The notes beneath the pieces were generated by a model that was given only the letters and a program-made list of their open reading frames with translations, searched no databases and was not told the DNA's origin. A stretch of DNA of 63,210 nucleotides, filler included. It is 14 parts of 14 records of this genome, joined end to end, with 100 filler letters (N's around TTAATTAATTAA, not from the genome) between each part and the next. Parts side by side here need not be neighbours in the genome. Positions count along the whole stretch, not along the records: positions 51,999 to 63,210 come from SRR9188676_1841; 13 more parts are not named here. One strand, given 5' to 3'. Position numbers and translations under genes: made by a program. How positions within the stretch are numbered: the first letter of the stretch is position 1; each line of letters opens with the position of its first letter. Of this stretch, positions 51,999 to 63,210 are shown piece after piece.

Positions 51999-52841
51999 GG
52001 CCCCGGCATCGCCGACGACAAGGGCGGCAACGCCGTCATCCTGCACACGCTCAAGCTGCTGAAAGACTACGGCGTGCGCGACTACGGCACCATCACCGTG
52101 CTGTTCAACACCGACGAAGAAAAAGGCTCCTTCGGTTCGCGCGACCTGATCCAGGAAGAAGCCAAGCTGGCCGACTACGTGCTCTCGTTCGAGCCCACCA
52201 GCGCCGGCGACGAAAAGATGTCGCTCGGCACCTCGGGCATCGCCTACGTGCAGGTCAACATCACCGGCAAGGCCTCGCACGCGGGCGCCGCGCCCGAGCT
52301 GGGCGTGAACGCGCTGGTCGAGGCCTCCGACCTCGTGCTGCGCACCATGAGCATCGACGACAAGTCGAAGAACCTGCGCTTCAACTGGACCATCGCCAAG
52401 GCCGGCAACGTGTCGAACATCATCCCGGCCAGCGCCACGCTGAACGCCGACGTGCGCTACGCACGCAACGAAGACTTCGACGCCGCCATGAAGACCCTCG
52501 AAGAAAAGGCGCAGCAGAAAAAACTGCCCGAGGCCGACGTCAAGGTGCTCGTCACGCGCGGCCGTCCGGCCTTCAACGCGGGCGAGGGCGGCAAGAAGCT
52601 GGTCGACAAGGCCGTGGTCTTCTACAAGGAAGCCGGTGGCACCGTGGGCGTCGAAGAGCGCACCGGCGGCGGCACCGACGCGGCCTACGCGGCGCTCTCG
52701 GGCAAGCCCGTGATCGAAAGCCTGGGCCTGCCCGGCTTCGGCTACCACAGCGACAAGGCCGAGTACGTCGACATCAGCGCCATTCCGCGCCGCCTGTACA
52801 TGGCCGCGCGTCTCATCATGGACCTGGGCGCCGGCAAGTAA
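51999..52841 (+). CDS. cpg2: Carboxypeptidase G2 (glutamate carboxypeptidase, M20), 5' partial
   Basis: GPGIADDKGG, NTDEEKGS, GKASHAG, GGGTDAA and YHSDKAEY...MDLGAGK closely match the glucarpidase sequence as I recall it. This points to Variovorax. Confidence 0.93.
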   Translation, partial: GPGIADDKGGNAVILHTLKLLKDYGVRDYGTITVLFNTDEEKGSFGSRDLIQEEAKLADYVLSFEPTSAGDEKMSLGTSGIAYVQVNITGKASHAGAAPELGVNALVEASDLVLRTMSIDDKSKNLRFNWTIAKAGNVSNIIPASATLNADVRYARNEDFDAAMKTLEEKAQQKKLPEADVKVLVTRGRPAFNAGEGGKKLVDKAVVFYKEAGGTVGVEERTGGGTDAAYAALSGKPVIESLGLPGFGYHSDKAEYVDISAIPRRLYMAARLIMDLGAGK

Positions 52842-52881
52842 GCCTCGCACCCACCGACAAGAAAGAACTGGAGACAACGCC

Positions 52882-54012
52882 ATGCTGCTCAGCGCAGACC
52901 AGGAAGCCATCCGCGACGCCGTGCGCGATTTTGCGCAGGCCGAGCTCTGGCCCAACGCCCCCAAGTGGGACCGCGACCACAGCTTCCCGAAGGAAGTGCA
53001 CCAGGGCCTGGCCGCGCTGGGCGCCTACGGCATCTGCGTGCCCGAGGAGCATGGCGGTGCGGGCCTCGACTACCTCACGCTCGCACTCGTGCTTGAAGAA
53101 ATCGCAGCCGGCGACGGCGGCACCAGCACCGCCATCAGCGTGACCAACTGCCCCGTCAACGCCATCCTCATGCGCTACGGCAACGCGCAGCAGAAGAAGA
53201 AATGGCTCGAGCCGCTGGCCCAGGGCCAGATGCTCGGCGCCTTCTGCCTCACCGAACCGCAGGCCGGCAGCGACGCCTCGAGCCTGCGCACCACCGCGCG
53301 CAAGGACGGCGACGGTTACGTGATCGACGGCGTGAAGCAGTTCATCACCAGCGGCAAGAACGGCCAGGTCGCCATCGTCATCGCTGTGACCGACAAGGGC
53401 GCCGGCAAGCGCGGCATGAGCGCGTTCATCGTGCCCACCGACGCGCCCGGCTACAACGTCGCGCGCTTGGAAGACAAGCTCGGCCAGCACAGCAGCGACA
53501 CCGCGCAGATCAACTTCGACAGCTGCCGCATCCCGGCCGAGAACCTCATCGGCGCCGAAGGCGAGGGCTACAAGATCGCGCTCGGCGCACTCGAGGGCGG
53601 GCGCATCGGCATCGCCGCGCAGAGCGTGGGCATGGCCCGCAGCGCCTTCGACGTGGCCGTGGCCTACGCCAAGGAACGCCAAGCCTTCGGCGGCGCCATC
53701 TTCGACCAGCAGGCCGTGGGCTTTCGCCTGGCCGACTGCGCCACGCAGATCGAAGCCGCACGCCAGCTCATCTGGCACGCCGCCAGCCTGCGCGACGCCG
53801 GCCGGCCTTGCCTGAAAGAAGCCGCCATGGCCAAGCTCTTCGCCAGCGAGATGGCCGAGCGCGTGTGCAGCGCCGCGATCCAGACCCTGGGCGGCTACGG
53901 CTACGTGAACGACTTCCCGCTGGAACGCATCTACCGCGACGTGCGCGTGTGCCAGATCTACGAAGGCACGTCGGACATCCAGAAGCTGCTGATTCAACGC
54001 GCGCTCGCCTGA
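52882..54012 (+). CDS. Acyl-CoA dehydrogenase
   Basis: FCLTEPQAGSD, GRIGIAAQ, GGYGY and QIYEGTSDIQ motifs. Confidence 0.95.
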   Translation: MLLSADQEAIRDAVRDFAQAELWPNAPKWDRDHSFPKEVHQGLAALGAYGICVPEEHGGAGLDYLTLALVLEEIAAGDGGTSTAISVTNCPVNAILMRYGNAQQKKKWLEPLAQGQMLGAFCLTEPQAGSDASSLRTTARKDGDGYVIDGVKQFITSGKNGQVAIVIAVTDKGAGKRGMSAFIVPTDAPGYNVARLEDKLGQHSSDTAQINFDSCRIPAENLIGAEGEGYKIALGALEGGRIGIAAQSVGMARSAFDVAVAYAKERQAFGGAIFDQQAVGFRLADCATQIEAARQLIWHAASLRDAGRPCLKEAAMAKLFASEMAERVCSAAIQTLGGYGYVNDFPLERIYRDVRVCQIYEGTSDIQKLLIQRALA

Positions 54013-54016
54013 CCAC

Positions 54017-54853
54017 GTGAGCCGGCGCCGCGGCCGACCCTGGGGCTCGATCGCCGCGGCACTCGTGCTCGCGGCGCTGGCCGCCTGGAGCGTCGTCATT
54101 GAGCCGCGCTGGGTGGCCGCGCGCGTCGAGCCCTTGGGCTCGGCGCAGTGGCAGCCTCCGGCCGGCCTGAAGGTCGCCGTGGCCAGCGACTGGCACCTCA
54201 GCACGCGCTCGCTGTGGCGGGTGACCAGCGCCGACCGCGCCGCGGCCATCGTCGACCAGATCAACGCGGCGCAACCCGACGTGATCCTGCTGCCGGGCGA
54301 CTTCCTTGCGGGTTCCGGCGACGACGAAGACTTTTCCATCGAAGCCATGGCTGCCGTGCTCGGCCGCCTGAAGGCGCCGCAGGGCGTGTACGCGGTGCTC
54401 GGCAACCACGACTGGTGGCACGACGGCGAACGCACCGCCAAGGCCCTGTCCGCGCAAGGCATTCGCGTGCTGGAGAACGCCTCGGCGCGCCTGCCCGGGC
54501 ACGAACTCTGGGTGGTCGGCATCGGCGACGACTCCACCGGCCATTCGCAGCCCGACAAGGCCCTGGCCGGCGTGCCACCCGGCGCCGCCACGCTGGTCAT
54601 GATGCACGACCCCTTCAGCTTCGCCGGCATGCCGCGTACGCAGGGCCTCGTGGTGGCGGGGCACACGCACGGCGGGCAGATCAGCGTGCCGGGCTACGGC
54701 GCACTGGTGGTGCCTGGGCGCGCGCCGCGTGAATGGGCCTATGGCTGGATCGCGCACAAGGACAACAAGCGGATGTATGTGACCAGTGGGCTTGGAGTGA
54801 GCATCCTGCCGGTGCGCTTCAACATGCGGCCCGAGTGGGTGATGTTTCGGTAG
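54017..54853 (+). CDS. Metallophosphoesterase (YkuE/YaeI-like) with N-terminal TM segment
   Basis: SDWH, GD, GNHD, GHTHGGQ and VTSGLG motifs. Confidence 0.92.
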   Translation: MSRRRGRPWGSIAAALVLAALAAWSVVIEPRWVAARVEPLGSAQWQPPAGLKVAVASDWHLSTRSLWRVTSADRAAAIVDQINAAQPDVILLPGDFLAGSGDDEDFSIEAMAAVLGRLKAPQGVYAVLGNHDWWHDGERTAKALSAQGIRVLENASARLPGHELWVVGIGDDSTGHSQPDKALAGVPPGAATLVMMHDPFSFAGMPRTQGLVVAGHTHGGQISVPGYGALVVPGRAPREWAYGWIAHKDNKRMYVTSGLGVSILPVRFNMRPEWVMFR

Positions 54854-54881
54854 GGTGGTGGTGCGTGGCGGTCGCTGGCGC

Positions 54882-54952
54882 TTGACGGGCGTCGTGGAGG
54901 CCGCGAACATTGCCGTCGCCTTGTGATGTGCAAGGCCGGGTTTAGCAGCCCG
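54882..54952 (+). promoter_or_regulatory. Sigma70-like promoter followed by a two-hairpin leader resembling a c4 antisense a1/b1 target motif
   Basis: TTGACG at 54882 with a weak -10 at about 54905, then hairpins GCCTTG...CAAGGC and CGGG-TTTAGCAG-CCCG upstream of ORF 54985. Confidence 0.45.
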
Positions 54953-54984
54953 ATGACATCCTGCGCAGCAATCCTTGGAGGCCT

Positions 54985-55332
54985 ATGGCCAATGCTTCAA
55001 GCGCAGTCACCGACGCCGGTTGTTCCTGTGCGTCTTCCCGTTCCAACGCCCAGTTCAAACCCTTCGAATGGGTTCAAGGTGAACGGCTCCCTCTTTCACT
55101 GCAAAGCCACGCGGCGTTTCTCAACGAGGCGCGCGATGTGGTGCAGGGTGCGCAGACGTTGGTTCAGTTGCTCGAATGGGATGAGGACCGGCGCGACGCC
55201 GCTTCTTCTGATGCAGACGCCGCGCCGCTTTTCGACGCATGCCAGCGCAGTTCGCTGCAACGGTTTCTTGCGGTCTCGCTGGGGCTTCTGCATGCGCGGA
55301 TTGAAGCGCAGGGCGAGGCGTTGGCCGAGTAG
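54985..55332 (+). CDS. Hypothetical helical protein
   Basis: GGAGG RBS and a 115-aa ORF downstream of the structured leader. Confidence 0.7.
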   Translation: MANASSAVTDAGCSCASSRSNAQFKPFEWVQGERLPLSLQSHAAFLNEARDVVQGAQTLVQLLEWDEDRRDAASSDADAAPLFDACQRSSLQRFLAVSLGLLHARIEAQGEALAE

Positions 55333-55348
55333 CTCGCGCCGCGTGACA

Positions 55349-56263
55349 TCAGTCGGCTGTCTTGCCGCTCGCCACATCTGCGACCTTTGGGGCCAGAGAC
55401 AGCAGCGCAAGCCTCAACCTGGGCTGCGCCGACGCCAAGTCCGAGACAAGGCCTGTGTAGAAGGGATAGATCTTTCCGCTTGGGCCATCGAAGATGATGG
55501 TCTGGCGTCCCAGAAAGGCCTTCGTCTTCGCGTCATACATGGCCATTCCCACGGAGACATTCATGCGGTACTCATTCAGGGGGCCCGGCGCGTTCCAGAA
55601 CGCGATCGGGCTGAGCTGCAGCAGCATTTCCGAATCGGTGGGTTCGGCATCATCCAACGAGCCTGAGCGATAGCGCTCGCCGTCTTCCTTGCTTGCAGGC
55701 CAGAGCAATGTGTTGGTCTTTCTGCTGGCGATGACGGGCTCCATTCCTCGCTGCCGCAGTGCGGGCAGCAAGGCATCCATGAACTCCTGCTGCGGGTTCC
55801 AATCTGGGAAGAGCTTTCGCACTTCGCGGTCGAAGCCCTGTGCCTTTCTTTGCGTGTCGTCCGCACTGGCCTGAATCAATGCGCCCACAAGGCCGGCAGC
55901 CACCAAGGACGAGGCTCCGGCACTTCGGCTCACAGGCGGTGACGCCGTTTGCTGGGCCAGGGTGGACGCAATCGCATCGCCCGCATAGTCGCCGCGCAGG
56001 GTGTAGTCGACATTGGAAAAGAACATGTCCGATCGACTTGAAAAATGGAAGTCGAAGTAGGGCGCCATCACACCGATCAACGCCAGGTTTTTGAGCGGTG
56101 GTGTTTCGATGATGGTGACGGTGCTCTTTCCGCGCACCTTGTCGGCTGCGATCTTGGGATGGACTGCGCATCCCGAGAGGATGAACATCGCGAGCAGGAA
56201 GCACAGGGCAACGCGCAATGAGCTGAAGTTGGCGATGGCTCTCGAAGTGGGAAATGGGGTCAT
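55349..56263 (-). CDS. Putative lipoprotein
   Basis: Signal peptide with lipobox LSGC (MTPFPTSR...CFLLAMFILSG-C). The ORF-track start at 56626 overlaps another gene and is probably too long. Confidence 0.75.
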   Translation of the reverse strand: MTPFPTSRAIANFSSLRVALCFLLAMFILSGCAVHPKIAADKVRGKSTVTIIETPPLKNLALIGVMAPYFDFHFSSRSDMFFSNVDYTLRGDYAGDAIASTLAQQTASPPVSRSAGASSLVAAGLVGALIQASADDTQRKAQGFDREVRKLFPDWNPQQEFMDALLPALRQRGMEPVIASRKTNTLLWPASKEDGERYRSGSLDDAEPTDSEMLLQLSPIAFWNAPGPLNEYRMNVSVGMAMYDAKTKAFLGRQTIIFDGPSGKIYPFYTGLVSDLASAQPRLRLALLSLAPKVADVASGKTAD

Positions 56264-56439
56264 GGGGATGAGGATGGGGTTCAGCGTATCGGTCGCATGG
56301 GCGCGACCTGCGACGCAGGATAGATGCAGCATTGACACCGTGCTCTCAGGCTTTTTACCAAGAGCGGTGTTCTGTGCGACGGGTTCGACGGGCATCCGCA
56401 ACACCGTCATCTTCATGTCCGGCGCGCTCCCATCCCGCG

Positions 56440-56466
56440 CGGCTACAGTCAGCCAGAAGCAGACAT
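56440..56466 (+). repeat. 27-bp cassette-associated site CGGCTACAGTCAGCCAGAAGCAGACAT
   Basis: 23/27 identical to the reverse complement of 58789-58815. It ends 13 nt before ATG 56480. Confidence 0.75.
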
Positions 56467-56479
56467 ATGAGGAAGCAGG

Positions 56480-56854
56480 ATGGTTCAGGTGAAATATCCC
56501 GAGATGCGGAGGCAACTTGAAGTAGTTGTGGAGGGTCTTGCCGATCCCGCATACCAACGCCGGGTTTGGGTCGACGGGCAACCTGAGGACGGCGTGGAGC
56601 ACGACGAATTCGGACTTGCGGTGCATTTCCTGTTCGACGACAGCTCCCTCGCCCAGGAGGCTCTCTCGACAATCGGTTGGATCTTGAAGGACGCCTCAGA
56701 GGCCGAGTCTGTCACTGCGCTGGTACGCACCATCGATGTTGTGCTCAATCGCTACGGAACGAATCTCTCAGACGCCGAGTACATCGAGGTTCCGGAATGG
56801 CGCTTCGTGGTTGTTGCCGCCAAAGCTACGATGGCCGTATTGGCGGGCCGCTAA
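56480..56854 (+). CDS. SCO4402-family / CdiI-like immunity-type protein
   Basis: VKYPEMR...LADPAYQRRVWV...AVHFLFDD...W..VV.AA pattern, with a GAGGA RBS. Confidence 0.75.
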   Translation: MVQVKYPEMRRQLEVVVEGLADPAYQRRVWVDGQPEDGVEHDEFGLAVHFLFDDSSLAQEALSTIGWILKDASEAESVTALVRTIDVVLNRYGTNLSDAEYIEVPEWRFVVVAAKATMAVLAGR

Positions 56855-57043
56855 CCCAGCACGCCTTTCAGATCGCCGCCGCTGAGGTGGCGCTTAACAA
56901 CAGCGGTGCGGTCAGCTAGTTTTTTGGACCAAGCCTGCCCGCTCTTGGCCTGAACGCCGCCATCCGAGCGAGGTTAACTTAGGGCCCGAAGGCGACATTC
57001 GGCCACCGTCCATGACGGACCTTCCTCGCCAGACAATCGACGC

Positions 57044-57367
57044 ATGAATCATTGGAAAGAGGTACTCGCGAAGTTGTCCGACGCCGGGCACTTTCTGGCT
57101 CACTGGCATCTTCATTCCGGTGTGGCGTTCTACATGTACGTGCCTAGGAAGCCGGATAGCGGTTCGGAGACTCTTAAGCCCGATTCCGGCGTGCGCTTCG
57201 AGGAAGTAGCGCGTCTGGAAATCATGCATTCCCTGCGCCTTGGGGGCTTGGAGGCAACGAACGACGTCGACGCGTGCCGACGTGCCGTTGCTTCAATTCG
57301 TGAAGTAGCCTTGCTAGAAATTGAGGGCGGAATTCAGCTGAGCCTGCACGACACCGCAGTCCGCTAG
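57044..57367 (+). CDS. Hypothetical protein
   Basis: 107-aa globular-looking ORF preceded by the repeat site at 56972-57000. Confidence 0.55.
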   Translation: MNHWKEVLAKLSDAGHFLAHWHLHSGVAFYMYVPRKPDSGSETLKPDSGVRFEEVARLEIMHSLRLGGLEATNDVDACRRAVASIREVALLEIEGGIQLSLHDTAVR

Positions 57368-57397
57368 TGGCCCTACCTTGCCTTCCCCACGACTCGC

Positions 57398-57847
57398 TCA
57401 TGTACGGCCAGGGTACCGCCCGCTACGCCAATCCAAATAGCTCCAGCTGTAGTACTCACCCTTATCAAGATGGACGCAAAAATAGGCGCCATCCGCAATC
57501 TCCTGCGCTCCCTGATGAGTGATAAGTTCCGCCACTTCTCGAAGCGTTCGCGTTGCTGCCAACCGGTCAATGAACGCCCTCGCAACAATGCGTGCGCCTG
57601 TTTCGTCCAATCCGAAGCGTTCACACAGGTGGCGCTCTGACGAGCGCAAGCTGCTCTCAATCACCGCTTCAGGCGGTGGTTCATCGAGGAACTCATTCGC
57701 CCATTGCCGAACGATGGCATCACACAGTCGGTCAGCAAGCATCGATGGCGCATGATGCGCAATGACCAAGTCGCCCGATTGCTCGAGCTGCTGCAACTCG
57801 GACAACAGCTTGGCTGAGATGGCGTCGCTGAGTGGTCGTCCTAGCAT
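57398..57847 (-). CDS. Hypothetical protein
   Basis: 149-aa ORF with an AGGA RBS, preceded by the site at 57887-57914. Confidence 0.65.
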   Translation of the reverse strand: MLGRPLSDAISAKLLSELQQLEQSGDLVIAHHAPSMLADRLCDAIVRQWANEFLDEPPPEAVIESSLRSSERHLCERFGLDETGARIVARAFIDRLAATRTLREVAELITHQGAQEIADGAYFCVHLDKGEYYSWSYLDWRSGRYPGRT

Positions 57848-57923
57848 TGTGGATTCCTACGAAAGTGCATGTTGGGCCGTCGCGATGACTGGCCGGTATT
57901 GGCCGCAAGCCGCTAAGGCAACT

Positions 57924-58469
57924 TCACCCAACGATTTCTGGCACCCCATCAACAAATCGAAAGAGGTTTCTTCCCAGGGGCTTTCGCGCTGCTTCACCAG
58001 CTTTTTTGGCGAACAGCTCCACGGCGTCCCTTACTTCAGCAGTGCAATCAACGGCGAAATACGCAACGCTTTCTGGTGCAGGAACCAGTGCCATGACATG
58101 GTCGGTGCCAAGTGATTGGGCAATCCAAGGGAGTAATCCGTTGTGCAGAATGGTCGCGCCAGCGAGCCAATGCTGATCGAAGAATCCGCACTTCCCACCT
58201 AGCGGAAGCTCTGCCACACCGAATTGAAGTCGGCCCCCGTGAATTTCTTTGTCTAGATTGGCCATTGCCATCACCACGGCCTCGGTTTCGCTGCCAGCCC
58301 AAGCCGCGGCTTCGCCTGGAGTGATCGCACGTGTAGCGCTGCCAAGGTCTTCCCAGAGCAATGCAGTCACTCGGGGACCGAGGTCCCAATATTCATATGG
58401 TTTGGACCCGAGCACACCCAGAATGCCTTGTTGGGCCAGGGCTGGAAATACATTGTCTCGTTCGAGCAT
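57924..58469 (-). CDS. Hypothetical protein, DUF1444-like
   Basis: W...A.ANL..., A.TIL, ALVP and KPL...LF resemble the DUF1444 pattern. AAGGA RBS present. Confidence 0.6.
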   Translation of the reverse strand: MLERDNVFPALAQQGILGVLGSKPYEYWDLGPRVTALLWEDLGSATRAITPGEAAAWAGSETEAVVMAMANLDKEIHGGRLQFGVAELPLGGKCGFFDQHWLAGATILHNGLLPWIAQSLGTDHVMALVPAPESVAYFAVDCTAEVRDAVELFAKKAGEAARKPLGRNLFRFVDGVPEIVG

Positions 58470-58546
58470 CTGAGAGATCCTTAGTTGCGAAGCCAGTCAG
58501 ATGTCCGGTTCTGGTGCCAATGAGCGGGCGGCAGCTCTTGGCCGCT

Positions 58547-58759
58547 CTACGACTTCGCGGGCAAGGTTCTTACCTGGCCTTGACGGACAAGAAAGTCCTT
58601 TGCGGCCCGAGCGAGGGAATCGTCTTCGATGATATGTGCCATGAGTTGACCGGCGTCGTTCTCGTAGCACGGTAGCAACCCGTTCATCACAAAGTACCGT
58701 CTCCACGCTACGCCGCCGCTCTGCAAGGCGGCTATGACTTCTTCGTCAGTGTGTTCCAT
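58547..58759 (-). CDS. Small hypothetical protein (70 aa, MEHTDEEV...)
   Basis: Internal ATG of track ORF 58547..59011, bracketed by repeat sites at 58527-58546 and 58789-58815. Confidence 0.6.
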   Translation of the reverse strand: MEHTDEEVIAALQSGGVAWRRYFVMNGLLPCYENDAGQLMAHIIEDDSLARAAKDFLVRQGQVRTLPAKS

Positions 58760-58788
58760 TGCGGTGTTGCGTTTGTGCGGTCGTCCGA

Positions 58789-58815
58789 ATGACCGCTTGT
58801 GGCCGACTGTAGCCG
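58789..58815 (-). repeat. 27-bp cassette-associated site CGGCTACAGTCGGCCACAAGCGGTCAT
   Basis: Inverted near-copy of 56440-56466, lying 29 nt upstream of ATG 58759. Confidence 0.75.
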
Positions 58816-58997
58816 TGCTTAAACCGCGGGTCGAAAAACCAAACTGACTGCGGGACGCACGGTGCCAAGGGCTGAGCCAACGCCACCCCAAGCAAGCTGT
58901 ACTTCCCATTGGCCAAACAGGTTTTGCAGTACGCGAACCTTGTATTAGCGGTGCTTGCTCACGTTGATCCAGCGCTGCGCGGCGGTCATGGCAGCCT

Positions 58998-59528
58998 TCA
59001 GCAAACACCACCGTGCGGGCGGCGAGGCTTCCGGGGACAGACCGTTGGCGCGCAATCGGGCCGCAGGCAATCGTCGTCAGTCGCTTCAGCGAGCAGCTCG
59101 GGTGCGACGTACAAACCGCTTGAGCCTGCCTTTCGCTTCGCCCACGCCACCAGCCGCTTCAACTCTTGGATGTGCTCGGCAGTGTGGTTGAGGCGGAAAC
59201 GGCAGCCACTGTCGTACATCGCTTCGGCCAGCCGCGGGCAGTGCGTGTCGAAATAAGCGCCAGTGTGCTCCTGCAACACGAAATACTCGAAGGTGAAGGT
59301 TGGGTGGCCGCGGTTAGCGTGGTCTGGGCCGAGGATCGGGCCGATGCCGATCCAGTTCAGGCGCCTATCGATGCCGTGGCTGCGCGCCTCAGCACCGATG
59401 CCGCCAATGCCGACCACAACGTCGTAGTTGAATGCACGGACTTGACCCATGCAATCTTGATTGCCGAATACCCCCTCAATGCCCGGATCGTGAGGATGCG
59501 TGCGCTTGTAAACCAAAACCCGTGGCAC
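58998..59528 (-). CDS. Hypothetical protein, remotely Nmad2-like, with a Cys-rich tail
   Basis: YKRTHPHDP...DCMGQVR...VVVGIGG recalls the Nmad2 Y...H..P...C...R...G pattern. GTG start with an AGGAG RBS, 38 bp after the TIR stop. Confidence 0.6.
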   Translation of the reverse strand: MPRVLVYKRTHPHDPGIEGVFGNQDCMGQVRAFNYDVVVGIGGIGAEARSHGIDRRLNWIGIGPILGPDHANRGHPTFTFEYFVLQEHTGAYFDTHCPRLAEAMYDSGCRFRLNHTAEHIQELKRLVAWAKRKAGSSGLYVAPELLAEATDDDCLRPDCAPTVCPRKPRRPHGGVC

Positions 59529-59566
59529 CTGTTGCTCCTAAAACGTGACTCGATAAGTGTTCAGGA

Positions 59567-60292
59567 TCAGGCTGCGTTGAGTACTTGGACCAGCTCGGCA
59601 ATCTTCGTGGCGATCACGGCCATGGTGTCTTCCTTGGTGCTCAAGCCACTTCGGGAGGCCAGCATCGGGCTGACTTCGAGCAGTGCTTCGAACGTCGTAT
59701 TGTGAATGATGGGCAAGAGCAAATTTTTCGAGAGCAGTGTCGACAGCTCCTTGTCGGCGACGCTCTCGTTGGGCAGACGCTCTAGCAACGCAGGCGTCAC
59801 CAGCACGAGCCCGATGCGCGAGGCAGCGAGGCCCTTGTCGATGGCGCGCATCATCGGCACTCCCAGCGGAAGGTCGTTCTCACTGAACCAGACTTTGACA
59901 CCGGCGGCCACAAGCAGCTCGCGCAGCTCCTTGGCGGCTCCTTGGCGGTCGCCCCATGCGTGGCACAAGAACACGTCGCGCAAGTCGGGCTGGGTCGCTG
60001 CCCGCTGTTCGACGGTCTCCCGGATGGGCGTGAGGGACTGTACTTGGGCAGGCGTGTACGAGACAGTCGATCCGGCGCGCGACCAGCGTGGCCTGGCGCT
60101 GCCGCTGCTACCACCGCTGCTGCCGGTGCTGCGGGCGCTCGGGCTGCTGCCAGAGCCGTAGGACGGACTGGAGCTGTAGCCGCTGCCATAACCGCCCCCG
60201 TAGTTGTACCGGCTGCGAGAACTGCATGCCGGGCAGTCCGCGGCCGCAGATGCGGTGCGGTGCCCGCGTGAAGGTGCTGTGCAACGTGCCAA
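59567..60292 (-). CDS. TIR domain protein with N-terminal C-x6-H-x8-CxxC putative Zn motif and Gly/Ser linker
   Basis: DVFLCHAWGDR...VWFSE...IDKGLAASRIGLVLVTP...DKEL (catalytic-position Glu)...LPIIH. TTG start with an AAGGAG RBS. Confidence 0.88.
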   Translation of the reverse strand: MARCTAPSRGHRTASAAADCPACSSRSRYNYGGGYGSGYSSSPSYGSGSSPSARSTGSSGGSSGSARPRWSRAGSTVSYTPAQVQSLTPIRETVEQRAATQPDLRDVFLCHAWGDRQGAAKELRELLVAAGVKVWFSENDLPLGVPMMRAIDKGLAASRIGLVLVTPALLERLPNESVADKELSTLLSKNLLLPIIHNTTFEALLEVSPMLASRSGLSTKEDTMAVIATKIAELVQVLNAA

Positions 60293-60753
60293 TCCTCACT
60301 CCTTCGAAGTAGTTGTAGCTAAAAGCTTTTGCTGACGAAAATGCATGGTCTGCAGATTTGTCGGTTTTGTAAACCCGAGAACAGGGTATTGATAAGTACA
60401 GTTATCTATACCGAAACGCAAAAAAGGCTGGTGTTGTGTTCGGAGGCGAGCGATATGTCGTTCACGATGTGCTCCCAAGACGCGATTGCTGCACGGCTTT
60501 TCAGCGAATAGTCAAAGTTTCGCCGACAGTAGATGCCGTTCGTGTCCCGCGCTAGAACCTTCATCGCCACCTCTCGAGCGATTCCCCGCCGAGCTGCGGT
60601 TCGAACGTAGAGAGCACGGTGGCTTAGGTCAAATATCGCGAACGTTCCTCATGCTGATGACGGAGTACTTCCCGTTGCGCCAAAGGTCTGCATTCGGCCA
60701 AATTTTCCCCTCGGCACGACCGACTGGCAGTGGCCGGTTGCAGGCAGACAAAG

Positions 60754-61164
60754 CTATTGCGCGTGAACTCTGAATCCCAAGTAGAGAAAAAACGCCACAA
60801 CCGCCCCGACGATGGCAAGCCCAACCGACCACGGAATGTCCATGTCACTGCGCTCGCGACGCGAGACGCCATCCATACGGGTCAGCATCGCGCGTCGCTG
60901 GTCCGGCGTGTTGATGAGGAACCTGACGATGCCTGCAATGCCGCAAAGCACAACAGCGCCCCCGAGGATCATCAACCCCCAAACTTCCATATTGAACGTG
61001 ATGGGAAATGCACCATCGGCGGCTGCGACAAAGGGTTCGCGTCCCCTTCGCGTGACAACGATTTGTCCGGCGCGCCATGCATTGAATCCGTGCAGAAAGG
61101 CGAAGACGCCCAAGGAGAGGGTCGCAGCGAGCAGGAAGAACAGCTTGAGGAATCGCAAAAGCAT
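60754..61164 (-). CDS. Three-TM membrane protein
   Basis: MLLRFLKLFFLL... with three hydrophobic segments. Start trimmed from track ORF 60754..61410. Confidence 0.65.
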   Translation of the reverse strand: MLLRFLKLFFLLAATLSLGVFAFLHGFNAWRAGQIVVTRRGREPFVAAADGAFPITFNMEVWGLMILGGAVVLCGIAGIVRFLINTPDQRRAMLTRMDGVSRRERSDMDIPWSVGLAIVGAVVAFFLYLGFRVHAQ

Positions 61165-61342
61165 GCTTTGGTGTTCAGCTTGAAGGAACGAAACGCCGGA
61201 CGACTTTAGCGGCACAAGCCATTGGCGCAAGAGGCCCCGGCGCCTTTGGCCCCGGCAGGTCCTCGCAAAGCGGGTATGCCCCGAGGCCTCCCACACCCCA
61301 CCTTCAGCCCCCGCCGCGCCAAGTGTTCCAATAGAGCCCTTC

Positions 61343-61774
61343 ATGAGCGCCACCGACCCCACTCCCGGCCCCTGCCCCTGCGGCCGCACCGACCGTCGCG
61401 ACAAGCCCATTGGCTACGCCCTGTGCTGTGGGCGCTACCTCGACGATTTCGAGAACACGCCGGCGCCCGACGCCGAATCGCTGATGCGTTCGCGCTACTC
61501 GGCCTTCGTACTGGGCCGCGCCGACTACCTGCTCGCCACCTGGCATGCGTCGAAGCGGCCGGCGTCGGTCGAGTTCGAGCCGGGCGTGAAATGGCTGGGG
61601 CTGGACATCCGCTCGCGCTCGGTGCTCGACGCCGACCACGCCGAGGTCGAGTTCGTCGCCCGCCAGCGCGGCGCGACGGGCGTGGCGTTCCGCCTGCACG
61701 AGCGCAGCCGCTTCGTGCGCGAGAACGAGCGCTGGTTCTACGTCGACGGCGACCTGCACCAGCCCCCGGGTTGA
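61343..61774 (+). CDS. ychJ: YchJ family protein (SEC-C motif + NTF2-like domain)
   Basis: CPCG...CC, LMRSRYSAF, YLLATWH and HERSRF...WFYVDG. Confidence 0.93.
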   Translation: MSATDPTPGPCPCGRTDRRDKPIGYALCCGRYLDDFENTPAPDAESLMRSRYSAFVLGRADYLLATWHASKRPASVEFEPGVKWLGLDIRSRSVLDADHAEVEFVARQRGATGVAFRLHERSRFVRENERWFYVDGDLHQPPG

Positions 61775-61805
61775 CGGCGGCGGGCTTCGGCCCGCACAAT
61801 CGGCC

Positions 61806-61897
61806 CCGCTCCGGGGTGCACGCATGTGGTGTGCTGAGATGGCAAAGCTGCCGACCCGCGAACTTGATCCGGGTCATACCGGCGTAAGAAGAGCTGC
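61806..61897 (+). ncRNA. TPP riboswitch
   Basis: GGGGTGC...GCTGAGA...ACCC..GAACTTGATCCGGGTCATACCGGCGTAAGAA upstream of thiC. A downstream GCACTCC is complementary to the GGAGTGC RBS. Confidence 0.93.
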
Positions 61898-61906
61898 ACT
61901 CCCTGA

Positions 61907-63210
<1,304 letters not shown>

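Follow-up and report, generated by a model that had tools for sequence, protein, structure and literature searches.

A 19-bp box as probable junction of single-gene cassettes in a chromosomal array of Variovorax, and a small tyrosine recombinase as its candidate enzyme

Introduction

Can single genes be stockpiled and re-sorted in a bacterial chromosome by a device other than the integron, which is the textbook one? The question is raised by an array of small genes separated by short, degenerate boxes at the far end of a 63,210-nt stretch of joined DNA pieces (the window in what follows, to which all coordinates refer), in a piece of Variovorax DNA that runs from 51999 to 63210. A sequence-only reading of this locus had proposed that the boxes are scars left by a system that accretes cassettes, distinct from the integron and served by a trans-acting recombinase. 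The analysis presented here is comparative, and G-, L- and X- labels stand for comparison genomes, fetched loci and sequencing runs, respectively.

The boxes are very probably junction sites between cassettes, as judged from their statistics and from the places where related sequences part company. The combined reading, in which the boxes are junctions of single-gene cassettes in a chromosomal array and a 207-amino-acid (aa) tyrosine recombinase of relatives is the likely enzyme, is considered probable. The evidence for the box, for the cassettes, for the crossover position and for the recombinase is presented below in this order, followed by the alternatives and by a comparison with known systems.

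The box

The conserved unit is 19 nt long and has GGCCA at its 5' end (GGCCA-NN-A-S-C-R-G-W-C-N-TTCG); it often has GGCTACAGTC directly before it. In an ungapped profile of 71 distinct copies, conservation extends from -6 to +28 around the combination of GGCTACAGTC, GGCCA and box and stops sharply thereafter. All 71 copies come from other Variovorax genomes, and the matrices built from them therefore provide a test that is independent of the sites chosen in the sequence-only reading. The 19-nt matrix picked out seven sites of at least 14 bits in the 4.46-kb array (56300-60760), whereas the remaining 6.8 kb of the contig contained none. Such hits averaged 0.044, and never numbered more than 2, in 500 first-order Markov simulations of the array. 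No box of at least 12 bits was present in positions 1-51998 of the window. Core flanks of Variovorax yielded 15 hits of at least 14 bits in 252,513 nt, and none of at least 18 bits.

A 26-nt pattern taken from the two best copies gave 19 matches in five Variovorax genomes and none when reversed. The 15-nt core, with at most one mismatch allowed, was present in 55 of 61 Variovorax genomes (362 hits, as against 39 for the reversed control); the number of cores per genome varied from 0 to 18, and they were clustered in arrays. Outside the genus, 58 of 201 genomes of the family had a match, nearly always a single one with one mismatch and at about the level of the reversed control; this count includes one unpublished genome, G293, on which no claim is based. 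Exact matches in the family-level set were restricted to G001, G249, G341 and G256, and the GGCTACAGTC prefix was near background outside Variovorax.

In several draft contigs (G008:C5, G008:C9, G018:C39, G018:C60 and G002:C1), an element core lies about 95-135 nt from the contig end. Assemblies therefore seem to break at these repeats, and arrays would be under-counted in draft genomes.

The eight strings listed in the sequence-only reading were found exactly at their coordinates and strands. Six of them score at least 14 bits; site 7 reaches only 10.9 bits, and site 4, which lacks the head, less than 6 bits. Two boxes had been overlooked, at 57354-57372 (minus strand, 14.7 bits) and at 56932-56950 (minus strand, 10.2 bits). 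The description of the site as GGCC-centred and about 27 bp long has to give way to that of the 19-nt unit with its GGCCA at the 5' end. The rule that five genes in a row have a box in front of the start codon holds, in box orientations identical to those of the genes, and the flip of the box with the gene strand was confirmed. The distances for genes B, C, D, E and F are 10, 42, 38, 55 and 26 nt, close to the 13-45 nt that had been given. Several copies had also been reported to lie within about 10 nt of the previous stop codon; boxes were found 3, 18 and 19 nt past stop codons, and one box overlaps a stop codon.

The array in the window

The features of the array and of its borders are as follows (ORF, open reading frame).

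55333..56434, minus strand: left, box-free end of the variable island; homology to genome G069 and to metagenome contigs stops at 55332/55333, at the stop codon of a 115-aa ORF
55349-56263, minus strand: gene of a lipoprotein-like protein of 304 aa, matching only two genomes (72-78%); no Pfam or NCBIfam match
56435..56469, plus strand: full element 10 nt upstream of gene B, consisting of GGCTACAGTC and box 56451-56469; 35.6 bits with the 35-nt matrix, 15.5 bits for the box
56480..56854, plus strand: cassette gene B, 124 aa, SCO4402 family/DUF7945 (Pfam PF25656, 1.4e-23; NCBIfam NF047838, 1.7e-36)
56932..56950, minus strand: weak inverted box downstream of B, 10.2 bits
56983..57001, plus strand: box upstream of gene C, 14.3 bits
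57044..57367, plus strand: cassette gene C, an ORF of 107 aa of no family; no Pfam, NCBIfam or PADLOC match
57354..57372, minus strand: box at the flip in gene orientation, overlapping the stop codon of C and downstream of D, 14.7 bits
57398..57847, minus strand: cassette gene D, an ORF of 149 aa of no family; no Pfam, NCBIfam or PADLOC match
57886..57904, minus strand: box upstream of D, 19 nt past the stop codon of E, 18.8 bits
57924..58469, minus strand: cassette gene E, an ORF of 181 aa of no family
58501..58516, minus strand: box-like string without the GGCC head (site 4 of the sequence-only reading), less than 6 bits
58525..58543, minus strand: box 3 nt past the stop codon of F and upstream of E, 14.2 bits
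58547..58759, minus strand: cassette gene F, 70 aa, recurring in G066, G005 and G028
58786..58820, minus strand: full element, GGCTACAGTC plus box 58786-58804, upstream of F; 39.9 bits over 35 nt, 24.5 bits for the box
58998..60292, minus strand: two-gene unit without internal box, consisting of a gene of no family for 176 aa (58998-59528) and a ThsB-like TIR gene (59567-60292)
60681..60699, minus strand: weak box (site 7 of the sequence-only reading), 10.9 bits
60717..60735, minus strand: box marking the right border of the variable region, 18 nt past the stop codon of the membrane-protein gene, 15.4 bits
60754..61164, minus strand: ORF for a membrane protein of 136 aa, head of the minus-strand array

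The two longer copies, which carry GGCTACAGTC (56435-56469 on the plus and 58786-58820 on the minus strand), form the best inverted pair of the region, with 83% identity over 30 nt. Full elements contain two inverted copies of the box consensus upstream of one direct copy.

Relatives of the cassettes of the window were sought by a genus-wide DNA search. The 3' end of gene D with the adjoining spacer (57367-57498) recurs at 80-83% identity in four genomes, and a 66% DNA match to gene E in G131 adjoins an element core. In G066, a second, headless box likewise follows the downstream box of cassette F. The membrane-protein gene is 95% identical in G069 and 70-79% identical in four other genomes; it is absent from 27 syntenic loci of other species.

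None of the cassettes in the window belongs to a named immunity family of Pfam or NCBIfam. The TIR protein (241 aa) matches the PADLOC ThsB model PDLC00424 over its full length, at 2.1e-121, and the Pfam family TIR_2. No ThsA is present. The neighbour of this ThsB-like (Thoeris) gene specifies the 176-aa protein of no family, which may be a new partner of the ThsB-like TIR protein.

Arrays in other Variovorax genomes

In 309,317 nt, made up of 24 sequences (23 stretches fetched from 16 genomes, and the island of the window), 309 boxes of at least 12 bits were counted. In 220 of 241 pairs of neighbouring boxes, both members are on one strand. The 223 units between boxes have a median gap of 593 nt, and the longest co-oriented ORF in them has a median length of 145 aa and takes up 79% of the gap. 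From box to start codon the median is 48 nt (range 0 to more than 100 nt), and from stop codon to next box it is 53 nt, many of the latter distances being 25 nt or less.

No cassettes common to the window and the fetched arrays were detected by blastn or tblastn. Among 150 nonredundant cassette proteins from the relatives, 39 had a Pfam match at E<=1e-4 and 111 had none. The families comprise SUKH/SMI1-KNR4 (four), Barstar (two), Imm33 or Imm33-like (two), SuFu (one) and DUF6896 (three), next to GNAT proteins, kinases and hydrolases; immunity-type cassettes (SUKH, Barstar, Imm33 and SuFu) thus make up 9 of the 150. In content, the arrays therefore resemble integron cassettes as well as poly-immunity loci.

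Breakpoints and the position of the crossover

If the boxes are junctions, related sequences should part company at them, as had also been predicted in the sequence-only reading. This was observed in three comparisons. All-versus-all blastn of the array stretches revealed 45 cassette-sized blocks (158-855 nt) common to different genomes. A box centre was no more than 30 nt away from 94 of the 180 block ends; in 1000 randomizations this number averaged 12.5 and never exceeded 28. Cassette F is shared at 95, 87 and 83% identity with G066, G005 and G028; the similarity spans the upstream to the downstream box, the neighbours on both sides are unrelated, and the cassette thus occupies four different neighbourhoods including that in the window. 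The block shared with these three genomes ends at the box 58525-58543.

The nearest relative found, G069, has flanks that are 97% identical to those in the window. Its right-flank homology stops inside the box 60717-60735, just after CGGCCA (60722-60735); to the left of this box, 5.4 kb in the window and 3.2 kb in G069 are unrelated.

Contigs from three metagenomes and one RNA library depart from the window at 58539, 60731 and 56987, each time directly past GGCCA or GGCCC, and further departures were seen at or within a box, at 58785, 60717 and 56466. In run X10, a contig containing F and GGCCA departs at 58539, one matches only 56434-56466 and one departs at 60717. In run X13, one contig departs at 58785 and two at 60731, and an RNA-library contig of run X14 matches 56898-56987 and continues with other sequence after GGCCC. 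Parts of the window had no contig cover in some of the runs. Such contigs show alternative joints; they do not speak to mechanism or frequency and cannot reveal excised circles. A weak joint from 55230 to 60480 (depth 2, run X10) was not used as evidence.

The crossover could be placed within the box by comparing two copies of the same cassette over box positions +5 to +18. On average, 2.05 of the 14 positions differ between the upstream boxes (n=20) and 5.47 between the downstream boxes (n=19), the latter value being near the 5.76 of random box pairs (Mann-Whitney p = 2.4e-6). Since the upstream boxes differ so much less than the downstream ones, the variable part appears to move with the downstream gene. 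On this comparison of sequences, the variable part of the box is to be assigned to the following gene, and the invariant GGCCA head, with what precedes it, to the gene before. The assignment of the head agrees with four junctions that end right after GGCCA or GGCCC.

A cassette would accordingly begin with the variable 3' part of a box; a short leader, a single ORF and, in some cases, a tail would follow, and the (GTC)GGCCA head of the next box would close it. The tail would consist of one or two inverted box copies, plus GGCTACAGTC in Variovorax. Cassettes would be gained, lost and re-sorted through crossover at or just after GGCCA. The window would then hold a small array of seven to nine boxes and some eight cassettes, in which the B-C stretch is inverted relative to the rest.

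A candidate recombinase

A block common to five arrays encodes a 207-aa protein that consists of a Phage_integrase catalytic domain only. The catalytic residues R, K, HxxR, H and Y were recognized by eye in its translation. The protein stays far below the cut-offs of the Xer, IntI and invertase models, with 36-56 bits on Xer models (cut-offs about 330) and 18 bits on the integron-integrase model (cut-off 265). No relative of it was found in the PDB at E<=0.001. The gene is present in 28 of 62 Variovorax genomes, often inside or beside arrays. Genomes with the gene have a median of 8 cores (n=21) and those without it a median of 3 (n=40; one-sided p = 0.0016, phylogeny being ignored).

Within 5 kb of 19 further copies of the gene, 50 boxes of at least 14 bits were found in 173,956 nt, as compared with the background of 15 in 252,513 nt; at least two boxes occur at 10 of these 19 copies. 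In 16 of 42 near-full-length genes, a co-oriented box follows the stop codon at no more than 250 nt, the distance being exactly 52 nt in six. Ten of the 42 have a divergent box in the 350 nt upstream, an arrangement like that of intI, and 17 have a box-like string at codons 20-26. This internal string encodes VGQKRPF (for instance at L148 13962-13980, in the gene copy at L148 13905-14528) and scores 14-18 bits in the best copies. Two truncated copies of the recombinase (G013:C29 and G046:C5) start at residue 20, as if cut at the internal box.

A search of 251 genomes from the same order detected the gene in 23 at E<=1e-60, including an unpublished one that was left out. Around 20 of these order-level copies, 17 boxes of at least 18 bits lie in 303,736 nt, as against none in the core background, and the recombinase gene has boxes on either side, at fixed distances, in several of the genomes. 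The family is conserved across orders, with more than 8000 matches at E<=1e-10, among which are records from Polynucleobacter, Rhodoferax and a Rhizobiales bacterium.

These associations make the catalytic-domain-only 207-aa tyrosine recombinase, in or beside the arrays of relatives, the most likely enzyme; that it is indeed the enzyme is a serious but tentative proposition. Crossing over would then be conservative site-specific recombination by this recombinase. A search for a co-occurring tyrosine recombinase had been suggested together with the sequence-only reading: one is present in relatives, and none is encoded on the contig in the window as far as Pfam and NCBIfam scans go, so that the enzyme would act in trans or the array would now be static.

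Alternative explanations

The alternative that deserves most attention sees the boxes as a selfish or regulatory repeat of the repetitive extragenic palindromic (REP) or miniature inverted-repeat transposable element (MITE) type, or as an operator or promoter; shuffling would be a by-product of homologous or microhomology recombination by the host after DNA uptake, with the recombinase as a passenger. It is regarded as unlikely. The full elements, with their two inverted and one direct copies, resemble compound REP-type repeats, in that 70% of the cells pair as against 23-45% when the partner is slid, and arrays occur in genomes where the recombinase was not found. REP sequences and REP doublets forming hairpins (REPINs) are expected as many dispersed palindromic copies per genome; the boxes are few (0-18 cores per genome), clustered, co-oriented, one per gene, and free of hairpin covariation. 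Some copies in Variovorax relatives read TTCACG-17 nt-TACAGT, which by eye is promoter-like, and an RNA-library contig that ends at 58803, near a box head, gives a weak hint in the same direction. In the window, however, a scan of 56250-60800 for -35/-10 hexamers with 16-18 nt spacing returned no sigma-70-like site, and the distance from box to start codon is too variable (0 to more than 100 nt, see above) to favour a promoter or operator. A crossover position in the invariant head is compatible with exchange at the longest identical stretch, as in homology-driven recombination. Against this, many junctions consist of a bare box, such as that 3 nt past the stop codon of F, with an invariant stretch of 5-8 nt, which is too short for RecA-type exchange. 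The bracketing of the recombinase gene by boxes at fixed distances is likewise difficult to reconcile with a passenger.

That the sites are degenerate attC sites, and the array a cluster of attC sites lacking an integron-integrase (CALIN) that derives from a classical integron and is served by an IntI elsewhere, is very improbable. It would account for the integron-like architecture of co-oriented single-ORF cassettes of mostly unknown function, in which the 3' part of the site goes with the next cassette; in addition, some copies end in GTTC with an upstream GAAC partner (L100 11799-11887), and 2 of 61 Variovorax genomes have an IntI that scores above the cut-off. These genomes have one core hit each and are not array-rich, their IntI loci (8.4 and 20 kb) contain neither a box of at least 12 bits nor a core, and IntI (TIGR02249) was above cut-off in none of five Variovorax genomes. 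In the 71 copies, G is the commonest base at position +24 with no more than 25 cases (A, 20; C, 18; T, 8), conservation stops at +28, and no conserved RYYYAAC lies upstream. RNAalifold predicted no long-range stem for 40 full elements, only an invariant one of four pairs. The candidate stems A'-B and A-B pair at 69.9 and 70.2%, as compared with 70.9 and 70.4% after column shuffling, and thus display no excess covariation; pairing at the level of the shuffles indicates that the inverted copies are further copies of the motif and not a maintained hairpin. Sites attC are about 57-141 nt long, and minimal sites of some 19 nt, such as the box 3 nt past the stop codon of F, fall below that range. 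L100 11797-11890, at first read as an attC-like palindrome, was dropped after the conservation profile and the covariation tests. Chance similarity in GC-rich intergenic DNA, finally, might be read into the two weak strings among the original eight (sites 4 and 7). It has next to no probability: a matrix from other genomes recovered six of the eight, and both the reversed-pattern controls (0 versus 19 and 39 versus 362) and the Markov expectation (0.044 versus seven hits) rule it out.

Several observations weigh against cassette junctions served by the small recombinase. All evidence is comparative, and no recombination event was directly observed. A crossover in the head is also expected from exchange at the longest identical stretch, so that site-specific and homology-driven exchange are not separated by its position. 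The left border of the island (55332/55333) has no box, one contig breakpoint (57751) lies inside gene D and away from boxes, and genes G and H, the two-gene unit, have no box between them. Besides the missing recombinase gene on the contig, many array-rich genomes, such as G001, G002, G050 and G042, have no recombinase match, and at 9 of the 19 further recombinase loci there is at most one box within 5 kb. Given its great size and its conservation across orders, the family may have other functions, or may simply be a frequent cassette.

Four of the checks that had been proposed to refute the sequence-only reading were carried out, and it stood up to each of them. A tyrosine recombinase co-occurs in relatives. 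The motif exceeds its composition-matched expectation, and the breakpoints in G069, in the metagenome contigs and in the blocks shared between genomes fall at the sites. The sites fit no Rfam family, and by end motifs, stem covariation, size and integrase they are not attC. Cassette accretion by a non-integron system with a trans-acting recombinase is supported; site-specific recombination and the identity of the enzyme are the parts that we infer.

Comparison with known systems

With integrons, the array in the window and its relatives share one ORF per cassette, co-oriented arrays, mostly unknown functions, cassettes that occur in different neighbourhoods, and a crossover that leaves the distal part of the site with the next cassette. 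They differ in having a 19-bp box instead of an imperfect palindrome of 57-141 nt, without RYYYAAC and GTTRRRY ends or stem covariation, and in that IntI is not above cut-off in 59 of 61 Variovorax genomes. The pdif modules of Acinetobacter plasmids (XerC/XerD) and the shufflons (Rci, sfx) resemble the present system in their short, double-stranded sites of about 19-31 bp that bound small modules. In these systems, too, both orientations are possible, the sites are asymmetric with one conserved arm, and a tyrosine recombinase acts in trans. However, pdif sites alternate in orientation and resemble dif, whereas the boxes are mostly direct repeats (220 of 241 pairs) between independent genes. 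Shufflons only invert segments of one gene; the boxes separate independent genes.

The closest analogue, set beside the arrays by its published description, appears to be rAID-1, the recombinase-associated acquired interbacterial defence clusters of Bacteroidales (Ross et al., bioRxiv 10.1101/471110). As described there, a XerD-family recombinase, close homologues of which are restricted to Bacteroidales, is located at the 5' end of each cluster, and membership is defined by a recombinase at least 44% identical to BF9343_RS08045 (bioRxiv 10.1101/471110). By the same description, rAID-1 and the Variovorax arrays are alike in being chromosomal rows of co-directional small genes, including orphan immunity genes of polymorphic toxins, with integron-reminiscent intergenic repeats, deviating GC content and an associated tyrosine recombinase. 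The gene-level features given there (at least two co-directional genes of deviating GC, immunity homologues and intergenic repeats) were all found, the immunity families in cassettes of relatives only. The Variovorax arrays differ from that description in their betaproteobacterial host and in the candidate recombinase, which has 207 aa and a catalytic domain only; its gene is often located inside the array or divergent from it and was not found in many array-bearing genomes. In the literature covered, from which subscription journals were largely absent, rAID-1 of gut Bacteroidales was the only non-integron analogue encountered, no description of the present system was found, and the 14-nt core string was absent on either strand. 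A paper on dfrB in Burkholderiales (PMC11662351) has no bearing on the array system.

A more far-reaching idea is that Burkholderiales carry a second, independently evolved gene-capture system, with the 207-aa recombinase, double-stranded 19-bp boxes and a self-mobile recombinase cassette; it is put forward as speculative, and we would not presently favour it. Cassettes would in this case serve mostly immunity and defence functions and be built and reshuffled by recombination at GGCCA. The recombinase gene would be a box-bounded cassette with an internal 5' box, moved or truncated by its own reaction. If the different site and the probably different enzyme are real, cassette capture would have evolved more than once, and the 19-bp site and 207-aa recombinase would form an unusually compact recombination pair. 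The system is present throughout a common soil and rhizosphere genus, with traces across the order. Tools based on attC or IntI miss such arrays, which would serve as a catalogue of immunity and defence genes, in the window including the ThsB-like TIR protein.

Genomic setting and other observations

The window consists of 14 pieces split by 26 runs of 44 N in 13 pairs; in each spacer, 12 bases stand between two such runs. GC content is 31-60% in the pieces before the last one (positions 1-51,998), with most of them at 31-49%, and 57-70% in the last piece (51999-63210). Judged by this composition, the assembly is a mixed or binned one, because most pieces are unlike the Variovorax piece. The latter carries genes for an acyl-CoA dehydrogenase, a YaeI-like metallophosphoesterase and ThiC, and these flank genes are 81-98% identical to syntenic loci in 27 Variovorax records. 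The variable island, bordered by the 115-aa ORF on the left and the membrane-protein gene on the right, has a GC content of 57-61%, compared with 62-70% in the flanks.

A comparison of the metallophosphoesterase-ychJ interval across strains had been proposed with the sequence-only reading. Among the 27 syntenic loci of other species the interval does vary, from 22 nt to about 4.5 kb, but none of the 27 contains island genes of the window, and no box of at least 14 bits was found in their 72,324 nt. The array is therefore not tied to this locus.

The nearest relative, G069 (L220), lacks the metallophosphoesterase gene that is present in the window (54035-54826) and in 27 other Variovorax loci. 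The conserved 173-aa ORF at 61304-61825, called ychJ in the sequence-only reading, has no Pfam match in that frame. The only Rfam match over the region is an ordinary thiamine pyrophosphate (TPP) riboswitch upstream of thiC (61802-61907; 59.3 bits, above the gathering score). The 115-aa ORF (54985-55332), which belongs to no family, and a conserved stretch of about 85 nt upstream of it (about 54880-54965) recur jointly in many Variovorax genomes, with 70-87% DNA identity between genomes and at least two copies in some. The array island of G001 is flanked by inverted copies, seen by eye, of another repeat of about 65 nt (L100 8200-8270 and 13105-13170), which contains GCGAAATAAAGGAGGAG and GGGGGACATTCGCGGAG. 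In the same locus, the octamer TGCCCTGA is repeated about seven times in tandem at L100 17609-17688.

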